From Candidatus Helarchaeota archaeon (lineage in GTDB: Archaea > Asgardarchaeota > Lokiarchaeia > Helarchaeales > RDOG01): a stretch of 24,312 bases of DNA. The notes beneath the pieces were generated by a model. It worked only from the letters and a program-made list of their open reading frames with translations, searched no databases and was not told the origin of the DNA. Shown piece after piece: positions 8,034 to 20,197 of the stretch. The position numbers were made by a program, and so were the translations under genes. The DNA lies in assembly GCA_029838215.1 (NCBI GenBank), contig JALGVI010000046.1:1-24312 (forward strand), given 5' to 3'. The first letter of the stretch is position 1. Each line of letters begins with the position of its first letter.

Positions 8034-9137
8034 TTAATACACTCCTGTTGTATACTCTTCTTTTAGTTCTGATATGATATCCACGTTTTGTAAACCGTCC
8101 CATGAAAGAAACTCATCATTACCTTTAACACGAACTGCTTGGTCCCGTTCAATGCACGGAGGGATGAACATTGATTCATCTAAACGCATGAAGCAAACCC
8201 GCCCCATTTCTCCATGCTTGACCTGAGAACCCACGGGATCGTCAAAATCTCCTACCCAACAAATATTTTTTGGTAATTGCGGGAAATATACAATGTCAGT
8301 TTCGGATTTTTGTGGTCTCTGAACTGAGATACCCACTAAAGAGTTTCCATATATACCCAGAAAAGGCTTTTTATAGATTTCTATCAATAGTTCCTGTTGA
8401 TCCGGGCTTATTGAGGTTCCTCCGTGAATGATTCCTTTAAAATCTATATCTTCAATATCAAATTGCTCTACCAGCCTATCCAAGACTACTGATGTCGTTA
8501 TCAGGATGCCGGGATCTTGAGTTTCAAATATTTTTTCATATTGGATTTTTAAAGCTCGTAAATAATCATCCAATACGTCTCTTTTCTCCTTACGAATGAG
8601 GTGCTTGATATAACGCGAGTCCAAATCAATCGTGAAGAAAAATCCTCCACGTAAATATGCCACTTCACGAACTAACGCACCGAATAAATGTGGTCCCGTT
8701 GGTCCGATATACGTGACATTTTCTCCCGTAGGAAATTGATGCTTGTCCATCGACCAACTCAAGAATGATGCCGATTTTTTGAACGAATTCCAATGATTTA
8801 GAATTTTTTTCGGAATGCCTCCACTTCCTCCTGACTCTCCTATCAGGAAATCGCTCTTTTTACAGGAAATATTACCAATTTTCTTTGGCATGAACTGATC
8901 AATTGGGAGTTCACGAAGACAATTTTCATCGAATGGTTCTGAAAATATTGATATTAAATCCTGAATTGAATTTACTTCCTTGATAACATTCACGCCATTA
9001 TTTTCTTGCCATTTTTTCCAGAATGGTGCTCCGAATTCCATGTCAAAATGGATTTTCAAGGTTTTCTCTAAATATACGTCTAGATCAATATTTTCTTCTG
9101 ACCAGGGGAGATGTATGATCTTCTGACTGAAATCCAT
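8034..9137 (-). CDS. EhpF-like truncated ANL-superfamily adenylating enzyme, copy 2
   Basis: HF...GAPFW, ESGGSGGIPK, GPTGPHLFG, FFFTIDLDSRYIK, YGNS, ERDQAVR and terminal GVY match the recalled Pantoea EhpF layout. ATG at 9137 (MDFSQK) is preferred over GTG at 9146 because the paralog starts MDFQRK. Confidence 0.8.
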   Translation of the reverse strand: MDFSQKIIHLPWSEENIDLDVYLEKTLKIHFDMEFGAPFWKKWQENNGVNVIKEVNSIQDLISIFSEPFDENCLRELPIDQFMPKKIGNISCKKSDFLIGESGGSGGIPKKILNHWNSFKKSASFLSWSMDKHQFPTGENVTYIGPTGPHLFGALVREVAYLRGGFFFTIDLDSRYIKHLIRKEKRDVLDDYLRALKIQYEKIFETQDPGILITTSVVLDRLVEQFDIEDIDFKGIIHGGTSISPDQQELLIEIYKKPFLGIYGNSLVGISVQRPQKSETDIVYFPQLPKNICWVGDFDDPVGSQVKHGEMGRVCFMRLDESMFIPPCIERDQAVRVKGNDEFLSWDGLQNVDIISELKEEYTTGVY

Positions 9138-9151
9138 GCGCATCACTCATT

Positions 9152-10165
9152 TTAATTTTGCAATCGTCGAAAGAACTCATCATGTAGATCTTTCACGCGT
9201 TCACGTTCTGCAAATTCAAATTGGTTTGAAAGATTTCTTAATGACGAATAATAAGTTTCCAATTCTTCAGGATTTAAGTCTTGGTTGATTGAATCGATTA
9301 ATTTTCGATAAGTTTGAACGAGTTGAACCACTAAGTTAATTGGCCATTCCCTACCTTGTAACTTAAAAATGTTAATTCCTAATTTCATTAAATACGGGAT
9401 GAGATTCGTGAACGTGTAAACGTGTTCGACTTTCTCCTTCAATTTTGAAATAGTCTTAATTGATAATTTTTGTAATAATCTTGGATCGTCCAAGCAGAGG
9501 CAGGGTTTATAGCATCCCCCGCCTGTACGCGGATCTCCTTTTACGACTATTGTTTTTGAGCCATCACTATCTACGATTTCAACGGGAGTAAAGGTATCCG
9601 AGAAAAGTGTATATAACCTGCAATTACCCGTTCCACCAATGCACCTTGTTCCGTGAACCATTATCTCGGTCTGCAATGGTGGTGAAAAACTCTTGGCGAA
9701 TTCGTGCAATTCACTAATTTCATCGATTGACGTGACCGTTGATCCGAATACAAATCCGCGCATTCCTGCTTTTTGATACTTCTGAATTTTTTTAGTGGAG
9801 TTAATGGACAGACCGATACTACCAATTATTAAGAGTTCGGGATATTGCTCGGATAACAATTTCATTAATTGAAAATTTTTCAAAATAATGCCTTTTAAGC
9901 CAAGACTATAATAATCATCCAATTTCTGCTTCAAGTATTTTGGAATTGAGAGTGTTTCCTCCTTAAAATTTATGTTTAAGGACAAGTATAATGACTTACC
10001 TTGCTCACAAACCGTTATTAAAACACGTTTTAATTCATCATGATTTAAACCGTGTCCAAATTTTTGACTAAGTCCGATTAATCCGGCATAAAGACTATCT
10101 GCACCCGCTTCGATGATCTTGTTCAGATACTTTGCCTTGCCGAGAGGTGCCAATAGTTGGACCAT
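9152..10165 (-). CDS. U32-family Fe-S protein (RlhA/TrhP/UbiU-like putative O2-independent hydroxylase)
   Basis: QLLAPLG, GADSLYAG, EIMVHGTRC-x6-C, GGCYKPC, FKLQGR. ATG at 10165 is preferred over TTG at 10171 (GGTG RBS; paralog starts MVELL). Confidence 0.82.
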   Translation of the reverse strand: MVQLLAPLGKAKYLNKIIEAGADSLYAGLIGLSQKFGHGLNHDELKRVLITVCEQGKSLYLSLNINFKEETLSIPKYLKQKLDDYYSLGLKGIILKNFQLMKLLSEQYPELLIIGSIGLSINSTKKIQKYQKAGMRGFVFGSTVTSIDEISELHEFAKSFSPPLQTEIMVHGTRCIGGTGNCRLYTLFSDTFTPVEIVDSDGSKTIVVKGDPRTGGGCYKPCLCLDDPRLLQKLSIKTISKLKEKVEHVYTFTNLIPYLMKLGINIFKLQGREWPINLVVQLVQTYRKLIDSINQDLNPEELETYYSSLRNLSNQFEFAERERVKDLHDEFFRRLQN

Positions 10166-19049: not shown

Positions 19050-19084
19050 TTGTCACGTCATCCTTTTGTTAAGATTGGAGGGGA

Positions 19085-20197
19085 TTAATAAACCCCTGTC
19101 GTAATTTTACTTTTCAATTCTGAGAATACACCAACTTCTGCAACGCCATCCCAATTACAAAAATCAGGATCTCCGCGTTCGCGAATTGCTTCATCACGTT
19201 CAACCATAAAAGGCCAGAAGAATGCCGGTTCTATTCTCGTGAAGCAAACTCTTCCTTTCTCGCCGTATTTAACTTGTTCAGAGAGATTATCTGGCTGACC
19301 AAGCCAGAGGATCGTCCATGGTAATTGTGGGTAATATACCATGTCTTTTGGATTTTTTGGCGGACGTTGAAAGCACCCGCCATACATCGTATTTCCATAA
19401 ATGCCAACGAATGGACGGTTGTTCACGCCATATATCTCCATTAAGCTTGCTTGCTCATCTGTGGTAATCGCCACACCCGCGTGAATTGTTCCGGAGATAT
19501 TCATCTTGTCAATGGGCAACTCTTCTGCCATTCGAGACAGAATTACTGCCGTCGTAACCAGAATACCAATATTTTGTGATTGCAAGATTGGTTGGGCTTG
19601 TCTTTGGAAATTTTCCATGTACTTTGCCAGCATGTCCATTTTCTGTTCCGCTGAAACCATTCGAATGAAACGGGTGTCCATGTCAACCAGAAAGAAAAGA
19701 CCATTCCTTTTTTCTGCATTCCATCTTGCCGAATAGCCAAAATAGTGTGGTCCTGATGGTCCGAAGTAAGTATAATTCACGTCTTTTGGAAATCCTTGCT
19801 TGTCAAGGCTCCAAGAGTAATAATCCATGTTTTCGGCAAATATTTTCTTGAGCCATGGAACACGTTTTGCAAGACCTGTTGCACCTCCTGATTCAAAAAC
19901 CAAGATATCTTGCTTCTGAACAGGATTCCCATTAATTTTCTTTGGATAGAAATCCTCAACAGGACGGGTCTTCAACGGTTCTTCATCAACGGGTTTCGTA
20001 AAGACATTAAACAGATCTGAAACGCATTTTATTTCTTTTAATACATCGACATCATTTTTTTTCTGCCATTCTAACCAGAAGGGCGTTCCATCTGTTGGAT
20101 GAAAGTGGATTTTTAAAACGTCTTCAACCCATTCGTCCATCTTAACTTTTTTATTATTTTCCCAAGGAATTACGACTTCCTTTCTTTGAAAATCCAT
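19085..20197 (-). CDS. EhpF-like truncated ANL-superfamily adenylating enzyme, copy 1
   Basis: IHFHPTDGTPFW, ESGGATGLAK, GPSGPHYFG, LVDMDTRFI, YGNT, ERDEAIR, terminal TGVY; AGGAGGT RBS. Confidence 0.82.
   Translation of the reverse strand: MDFQRKEVVIPWENNKKVKMDEWVEDVLKIHFHPTDGTPFWLEWQKKNDVDVLKEIKCVSDLFNVFTKPVDEEPLKTRPVEDFYPKKINGNPVQKQDILVFESGGATGLAKRVPWLKKIFAENMDYYSWSLDKQGFPKDVNYTYFGPSGPHYFGYSARWNAEKRNGLFFLVDMDTRFIRMVSAEQKMDMLAKYMENFQRQAQPILQSQNIGILVTTAVILSRMAEELPIDKMNISGTIHAGVAITTDEQASLMEIYGVNNRPFVGIYGNTMYGGCFQRPPKNPKDMVYYPQLPWTILWLGQPDNLSEQVKYGEKGRVCFTRIEPAFFWPFMVERDEAIRERGDPDFCNWDGVAEVGVFSELKSKITTGVY

Follow-up and report, generated by a model that had tools for sequence, protein, structure and literature searches.

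The 24,312-bp window analysed here is an entire contig (C117) of a 94%-complete, 3.62-Mb metagenome-assembled genome (MAG) of a Candidatus Helarchaeota archaeon, and it carries in one operon two genes for adenylating enzymes of the EhpF type, F1 and F2, and two genes for reductase subunits of the EhpG type, G1 and G2. These four genes probably encode a doubled and partly specialised two-protein carboxylic acid reductase (CAR) of the kind represented by EhpF/EhpG, GriC/GriD and ThnN/ThnO, in which two F proteins would feed a heteromer of G1 and G2. The heteromer is the least certain part of this reading, whose chemistry, heteromer and substrate class we infer from observed homology, folds, residue states, co-occurrence, duplication history and conservation. 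The enzyme family itself is known; what is new is the doubled set, the variant form of G2, a lineage-specific basic tail on G1 and G2, and a unique operon in an anaerobic Asgard archaeon. The four genes and the evidence that assigns them are:

8034..9146, minus strand: F1, EhpF-type truncated ANL adenylating enzyme, 370 amino acids counted from a GTG (phmmer, motifs).
19085..20197, minus strand: F2, second EhpF-type adenylating enzyme, 370 amino acids (phmmer, AlphaFold2 model with Foldseek).
11228..12820, minus strand: G1, EhpG/ThnO-type reductase subunit with an aldehyde dehydrogenase (ALDH) fold, 530 amino acids, keeps Cys296 (BLASTP, tblastn, AlphaFold2 model).
12833..14440, minus strand: G2, paralogue of G1, 535 amino acids, Gly301 at the nucleophile position (alignments).

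F1 and F2 have the same length and are 43% identical to each other; comparison with orthologues makes the ATG at 9137 a likelier start for F1 than the GTG. The original prediction, made from the letters of the sequence, had ascribed to both proteins of about 370 residues the layout of EhpF, running from HF...G.PFW to GVY, and this has been borne out: both contain HF..G.PFW near the N-terminus and TTGVY at the C-terminus, and in phmmer searches against the PDB both match EhpF over their full length, F1 with E 2.3e-32 (3hgu_A, residues 13-356) and F2 with E 5e-28 (residues 22-357). The motifs of F1, namely the P-loop ESGGSGGIPK at residue 104, GPTGPH, DLDSR, HGGTS, YGNS, ERD and the terminal TGVY, can be compared with the signature of the F family as a whole, which consists of the P-loop E[ST]GG..G.PK, GPxGPH, DxDxR, YGN, GExGR, ERD and a C-terminal G-[VLI]-Y. 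The terminal Tyr is present in all 55 members of the family, which come from Pantoea, Streptomyces, haloarchaea and Asgard archaea, and the Gly at position -2 in 98% of them. Positions conserved in at least 80% of the 51 other members are held by F1 and F2 except for a few substitutions, some of which are common to both proteins and lineage-specific (a 96%-conserved His is replaced, L is changed to T, and P to S or T) while others occur in one F protein only, P110A in the P-loop of F2 among them. Since the strongly conserved positions are kept, both enzymes look active, and each is predicted to adenylate a carboxylate.

The chains of F1 and F2 stop about 35 residues past the ERD motif, which means that the C-terminal subdomain of ANL enzymes is absent from both, as had also been proposed at the outset. 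The AlphaFold2 model of F2, the more divergent of the two proteins, has a pLDDT of 94.7, and a Foldseek search with this model places EhpF chains at ranks 1-5 (E 1.6e-26 to 1.5e-24, TM score 0.78-0.84, root-mean-square deviation about 3 Å). PaaK1 comes next with E 1.8e-16, i.e., ten orders of magnitude behind EhpF, and its low target TM score (0.57-0.60) is explained by the greater length of PaaK, which has about 75 additional residues; these next matches are PaaK-family AMP-ligases and include NatL2 and ClxA. A best structural match to PaaK or LuxE had been set beforehand as the outcome that would speak against an EhpF-like enzyme, and it is EhpF that tops the search, with no LuxE/LuxC signal. 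The fold of F1 is likely EhpF-like as well, judging from its sequence match. The conserved unstructured C-terminal EGVY tail of the F proteins may, speculatively, be considered a candidate docking element.

The reductase subunits G1 and G2 are 66% identical to each other and give weak matches to the Pfam Aldedh family. The proposal that they are EhpG-like held: BLASTP aligns them with Pantoea EhpG over about 400 residues, including a P.PH[ED]G..E.L motif (E 2e-21 for G1 and 2e-19 for G2), and tblastn aligns them with the ThnO region of Streptomyces cattleya (E 2e-36 for G1 and 2e-27 for G2). No structure of the EhpG type is present in the PDB. The AlphaFold2 model of G1 (pLDDT 85) shows a complete ALDH fold, with Foldseek TM scores of 0.70-0.79 to many ALDHs at 12-16% identity. 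The motif DP..PHEG...HLY, which was said to end both proteins, is indeed there, but it is not terminal, since it occupies residues 474-488 of G1, with a further 40 residues or so of basic extension after it.

This basic C-terminal extension, HKW[KR]LLKKTH[KR]RE.., is conserved in G1, G2 and their orthologues and absent from all other members of the G family. It corresponds to the C-terminal 35-40 codons or so (11228-11335 in G1 and 12833-12940 in G2) and is predicted with low confidence to form a helix; it may be a docking or membrane-association element.

Individual residues of the G proteins were mapped by aligning a profile of 16 G-family sequences to the ALDH KauB (6b4r; E 2e-17). The PSNHP of the G family aligns with the PWNFP of ALDHs, so the oxyanion Asn (Asn171 in G1) is kept in the family, and GRGC aligns with GEVC, which identifies the catalytic Cys as Cys296 of G1 (codon 11933-11935). 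The general-base Glu of the ALDH motif LEaGGKSP falls in a stretch that is absent from the G family. A thiol that is not accompanied by a water-activating Glu is expected of an enzyme that reduces, rather than hydrolyses, a thioester, and on the established mechanism of ALDHs the G family would thus be reductive rather than hydrolytic; G1 and G2 would reduce an activated acid to an aldehyde with NAD(P)H. The two subunits differ, however, at the nucleophile itself. The catalytic Cys that characterises reductases of the EhpG/GriD/ThnO type is present in G1 and in all 12 of the other relatives examined, and it is Gly in G2, a divergent paralogue (Gly301, codon 13538-13540), and in the orthologues P0006 and P0007. 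The same three sequences have a Cys (Cys267 in G2, 13640-13642) in place of an otherwise invariant Gly, which is Gly262 of G1 and lies in GPG, and they have gained a further Cys (Cys304 in G2, 13529-13531) three residues past the lost nucleophile. G2 keeps the oxyanion Asn, the equivalent of Glu399 and the NAD-binding motifs. Its identity to the orthologue P0006 is 76%, compared to 79% for G1, 72% for F1 and 76% for F2 and their orthologues. The near equality of the values for G2 and G1 indicates that G2 is under constraint and is not decaying.

In the pathway we favour, F1 and F2, as ANL enzymes without the C-terminal subdomain, would each turn a carboxylate into an acyl-AMP, the acyl group would move to Cys296 of G1 to form a thioester, and NAD(P)H would reduce this thioester to an aldehyde. 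Since the general-base Glu found in oxidative ALDHs is missing from the entire G family, the aldehyde would leave the enzyme without being hydrolysed. G2 would most likely form a heteromer with G1, ALDHs being obligately dimeric or tetrameric, and in it would either serve as a non-catalytic or docking subunit or work through its new Cys267. The two adenylating enzymes would then feed one heteromeric reductase with two acids or with two carboxylates of one molecule. The reasons for proposing a heteromer are that the C296G and G262C changes are specific to the G2 type of subunit (type B) and conserved in three sequences, that G2 is constrained like G1 and adjoins it, and that the duplication is older than the divergence of the two organisms in which the four genes are found.

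The second of these organisms is represented by a single other contig (22,035 bp, from Logan), which carries orthologues of all four genes, P0012 (F1), P0015 (F2), P0005 (G1) and P0006 (G2), at 72-79% identity. It was found by word-based searches of 5.8 billion proteins, among which the four-gene F/G set occurs in these two organisms only; the other close matches were a partial protein of the G2 type, which comes from the Helarchaeales MAG that has MHC1591263.1, and a fragment of the F2 type. An NCBI protein annotated as 'Candidatus Helarchaeales archaeon' is 78% identical to G2. Scans of genome contigs and metagenome contigs did not find the operon elsewhere. In phylogenetic trees, the groupings (F2,(F1,P0012)) and ((G1,P0005),(G2,P0006)) are fully supported clades, the G tree being a quick version, and they place the duplications of both F and G within this lineage and before the divergence of the two organisms.

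Forty close relatives of the genome yielded no F gene. Among 400 Asgard genomes, F is present in 24 and G in 25, with both in 22; G alone occurs in three genomes (in two of them as a fragment) and F alone in two, so that F and G are found together in 22 of the 27 carriers. Nearly all of these carriers belong to one other family (22 of its 31 genomes), which has one copy of each gene, often 4-10 kb apart or on separate contigs, and the other Asgard F/G loci have no neighbours in common with the operon described here, the surrounding genes being unrelated. Within this sample, two F and two G genes are present in this genome only. The description of the locus as a duplicated reductase in an archaeon therefore stands as regards the two copies of each gene, but the occurrence of F/G pairs in archaea is not particular to it, as pairs are found also in the other Asgard family just mentioned and, as single pairs, in haloarchaeal plasmids and Aenigmatarchaeota. 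F adjoins G in Pantoea, Halalkalicoccus, Halomarina, Streptomyces goshikiensis and genome G397. With 211 cluster representatives at E <= 1e-30 in a set of 1.84 billion, the F family is small.

Some F modules are fused to other domains, namely to a class-III aminotransferase, a Zn alcohol dehydrogenase and SCP2 lipid-binding domains (P0072, P0110, P0111, P0118 and P0120). Since aminotransferases and Zn alcohol dehydrogenases use aldehydes, such fusions fit a position of F upstream of an aldehyde, and they would be natural carboxylate-to-amine or carboxylate-to-alcohol enzymes, apparently unstudied so far. A fusion of G with F, which would have been Rosetta-stone evidence, was considered and rejected, as the fusion partner in the three long F-containing proteins turned out to be an aminotransferase in one, a Zn alcohol dehydrogenase in another and an alpha/beta hydrolase in the third, and not G.

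Three bacterial pairs belong to this enzyme family. The first is EhpF/EhpG of Pantoea agglomerans, which belongs to the cluster for the phenazine D-alanylgriseoluteic acid and in which the genuine EhpG gene adjoins ehpF. F1 and F2 align with EhpF (3HGU, 3HGV, 3L2K) over the full length and resemble it in fold, in the P-loop, in the missing C-terminal ANL subdomain and in the terminal GVY, and G1 and G2 resemble EhpG in the P.PH[ED]G motif and in the absent general-base Glu. The differences are that identity is only 20-30%, that there are two copies of each protein here, that G2 has no nucleophile Cys, that the G proteins carry the basic extension of about 40 residues, and that the F and G genes lie apart. 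The hosts differ as well, an anaerobic Asgard archaeon here and an aerobic enterobacterium in the case of EhpF/EhpG. EhpF and EhpG were reportedly proposed by Bera and co-workers in 2010 to turn phenazine-1,6-dicarboxylate into the 6-formyl compound via an adenylate, and a diacid of this kind had been offered as the model for two pairs of enzymes acting on one substrate. This analogy is unsupported: when the genome (94% complete) was searched by tblastn with the Ehp proteins of Pantoea, the only matches were EhpF- and EhpG-like ones and a partial PhzE-like one of the anthranilate-synthase type, and there is no PhzA/B, PhzD, PhzF or PhzG. Without phz core genes the analogy with a phenazine diacid fails, a phenazine substrate is rejected, and the substrate would differ from that of the Pantoea enzymes.

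The same two-protein logic, an AMP-binding protein and an ALDH-like protein, is known from GriC/GriD of Streptomyces griseus, the aryl carboxylic acid reductase of grixazone biosynthesis. This pair is reported to act on 3-amino-4-hydroxybenzoate, which it activates as the acyl-AMP and then turns into the aldehyde (PMC10179220, citing Suzuki et al. 2007). The likeness to GriC/GriD is by description and through relatives named by NCBI, since F1 and F2 match Streptomyces F-like proteins that carry the name 'arylcarboxylate reductase'; no counterpart of 3-amino-4-hydroxybenzoate is indicated in the Asgard operon. The third system is ThnN/ThnO of the thienamycin cluster on the S. cattleya plasmid pSCAT, where the match of ThnN to F2 has E 5e-46 and that of ThnO to G1 has E 2e-36. 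The thienamycin cluster has no U32, DUF2284 or DUF362 genes, and the operon described here has neither a beta-lactam synthetase nor a carboxymethylproline synthase. At 18238-25858 of pSCAT (L032), the ThnN/ThnO pair is flanked by three class-B cobalamin-type radical S-adenosylmethionine (SAM) genes, thnK, thnL and thnP, as it is by three such genes here; these thienamycin radical SAM genes are related to those of the Asgard operon only generically (24-27% identity). LuxC/LuxE and the type I CARs, which resemble nonribosomal peptide synthetases, carry out the same overall chemistry, i.e., activation with ATP followed by reduction of an enzyme-bound thioester with NAD(P)H. Type I CARs are ruled out here, as F and G are separate proteins in which Pfam finds neither a carrier domain nor a NAD_binding_4 domain, the reductase domain of the short-chain dehydrogenase/reductase type.

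The operon as a whole lies on the minus strand and comprises 14 tightly packed genes from 23995 to 6497, with every gap between -17 and +42 bp. It begins with rSAM_A, a 221-amino-acid protein, U32_C, F2, rSAM_B, a 402-amino-acid protein ending in DUF2284, and a DUF2284 protein, and continues with a DUF362 protein, G2, G1, U32_B, U32_A, F1 and rSAM_C. G2 is directly upstream of G1, with a 12-bp gap. The genes other than F and G are:

20224..23995, minus strand: operon head with rSAM_A, the 221-amino-acid protein and U32_C (Pfam, NCBIfam).
Within 20224..23995, minus strand: rSAM_A, a B12-binding radical SAM protein of the Ta0216 type (Pfam, NCBIfam).
Within 20224..23995, minus strand: U32_C, a U32 protein with an extra Cys cluster and a DUF2621-like tail (Pfam, NCBIfam).
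17583..19049, minus strand: rSAM_B, a cobalamin-binding radical SAM protein closest to BchE (Pfam B12-binding and Radical_SAM; NCBIfam BchE E 1e-61, below the cut-off).
14441..17582, minus strand: DUF362 protein, DUF2284 protein and 402-amino-acid protein with a C-terminal DUF2284 domain (Pfam).
9152..11210, minus strand: U32_A and U32_B, adjoining genes for two UbiU/TrhP-like U32 proteins, located between F1 and G1 (Pfam Peptidase_U32 E 1e-23 and 1e-25; partial NCBIfam UbiU/TrhP).
6497..8017, minus strand: rSAM_C, a third radical SAM protein with a weak B12-binding domain, the last enzyme gene of the operon (Pfam Radical_SAM E 6e-16; NCBIfam MJ_1487 type E 3e-27).

U32_A and U32_B are 34% identical, and their arrangement is like that of the UbiU/UbiV heterodimer. 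Neither Pfam nor NCBIfam gives a family match for the 221-amino-acid protein, and the protein atlas has no usable match for it or for the N-terminal domain of the 402-amino-acid protein. The U32, DUF2284, F and G genes of the genome are confined to the operon, and more than 12 paralogues of the class-B radical SAM genes are scattered genome-wide. The contig has a GC content of 38.6%, and its GC and tetranucleotide composition is typical of the genome (rank 56 of 103 contigs), so contamination or recent transfer was rejected. The operon context suggests that the acid which serves as the substrate is also hydroxylated in an oxygen-free manner and C-alkylated or rearranged. It would be a non-phenazine acid on which the three U32 proteins would act as hydroxylases that need no oxygen and the three cobalamin radical SAM proteins as alkylating or rearranging enzymes.

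The original prediction left a choice between two equivalent pairs of an adenylating enzyme and a reductase and a set of heteromers. The first possibility would have F1-G1 and F2-G2 act independently on different carboxylates, for example on the two ends of a diacid, with the nucleophile of G2 relocated to Cys267 or Cys304. It accounts for the presence of two proteins of each kind and for the conservation of all four on the second contig, and it is in keeping with a G2 that is under purifying selection and retains its oxyanion Asn, Glu399 equivalent and NAD-binding motifs; moreover, Cys267 replaces a family-invariant Gly beside the position of the ALDH general base and, from what is known of ALDHs, is thus probably located in the active site. 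Equivalence of the two pairs is weakened, however, by the fact that the canonical nucleophile, a Cys in G1 and 12 other relatives, is Gly in G2 and its orthologues. The gene order pairs no F with a G, and the G paralogues are more alike than the F paralogues (66% vs 43%), which is what co-evolution of the G proteins within a single complex would lead one to expect. Independent pairs are therefore, in our estimate, unlikely, and heteromers have become the better of the two readings. Several points nevertheless weigh against a doubled CAR with a G1/G2 heteromer. The F1 and F2 genes adjoin neither G gene in the operon, no aldehyde-consuming enzyme is recognisable among the operon genes, and the assignment of EhpF/EhpG, on which the comparison leans, reportedly rests on a knockout and a structure and not on reconstitution. 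G2 might also use Cys267 or Cys304 for activity, in which case there would again be two independent pairs.

Two further explanations would separate the genes from carboxylic acid reduction of this type altogether. The F proteins could be stand-alone ligases that form esters or amides via an acyl-AMP without CoA, like NatL2 and ClxA, and the G proteins ordinary oxidative ALDHs that act elsewhere in the pathway. NatL2 and ClxA are indeed among the next structural matches after EhpF, and the weak NCBIfam and Pfam matches of the G proteins are to oxidative ALDHs; but EhpF is ahead by ten orders of magnitude, the G family does not have the general-base Glu needed for thioester hydrolysis, and F and G co-occur tightly, often as adjoining genes, across distant phyla. 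This explanation is improbable. It is even harder to credit that the genes encode a fatty acid reductase of the LuxE/LuxC type that supplies fatty aldehydes for lipid or wax metabolism. Up to E 10, none of the four proteins matches Pfam LuxE (PF04443) or LuxC (PF05893), so that membership in these families was rejected, the best structural match of the F2 model is EhpF, and the operon contains no LuxD-type transferase or lipid genes. What speaks for such a reductase is the analogous architecture, a short synthetase and a reductase of the ALDH superfamily, together with a weak LuxC match of Pantoea EhpG (E 0.001), the fusion of some F relatives to SCP2 lipid-binding domains and the presence of a DegV gene near F/G in one Asgard genome.

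If the doubled CAR with its G1/G2 heteromer is confirmed, it would be the first two-protein CAR of heteromeric form and the first from an archaeon, and the recurring association with cobalamin radical SAM genes, as in the thienamycin cluster, would point to a common logic in which aldehydes are handed to radical enzymes. More tentatively, the operon can be pictured as a strictly anaerobic Asgard pathway for a specialised metabolite or a cofactor, in which two different adenylating enzymes serve a heteromeric EhpG-type reductase that has one canonical subunit and one whose nucleophile has been relocated or lost. It is one of very few candidate multi-step tailoring pathways in Asgard archaea, with enzymes that are all oxygen-independent. 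To our knowledge, two-protein CARs have been little studied: the adenylating half is represented by a single structure, the reductase half has none, and biochemical work is very scarce. They are attractive biocatalysts that yield aldehydes without a carrier domain or a phosphopantetheinyl transferase. The locus constitutes a natural experiment, for it has two activators, and of its two reductase subunits one has no canonical nucleophile yet is under selection; it could show how an acyl group is handed over from a truncated ANL enzyme to an ALDH-fold partner.

Several neighbouring features deserve mention. The two DUF2284 genes (15755-17582, minus strand) match the C-terminal half of NCBIfam MbdU ('metal-binding double selenoprotein'), and a DUF5714 gene outside the operon core (4180-4920, minus strand) matches its N-terminal half; because DUF5714 and DUF2284 cover the two halves of MbdU, there is a Rosetta-stone hint of their joint action. 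No function was found in the literature for DUF2284, DUF362 or DUF5714, and DUF362 is noted there just for belonging to a common Pfam clan with LarA. At the tail of the operon, a 130-amino-acid ORF (5064-5456, plus strand), whose N-terminus looks ribbon-helix-helix-like by eye, is convergent with a 332-amino-acid gene without a family and is possibly a regulator. Positions 241-4183 (plus strand) hold a MoaA-like radical SAM gene, whose listed reading frame is short at the N-terminus, and after it an ABC transporter of the molybdate/tungstate type with a binding protein, a permease and an ATPase with a TOBE domain, and these genes may be unrelated to the operon. Directly upstream of rSAM_A, a gene cut by the contig end (24104-24310, minus strand) encodes a small protein with two CxxC pairs, which could be a zinc-ribbon regulator or an accessory protein.

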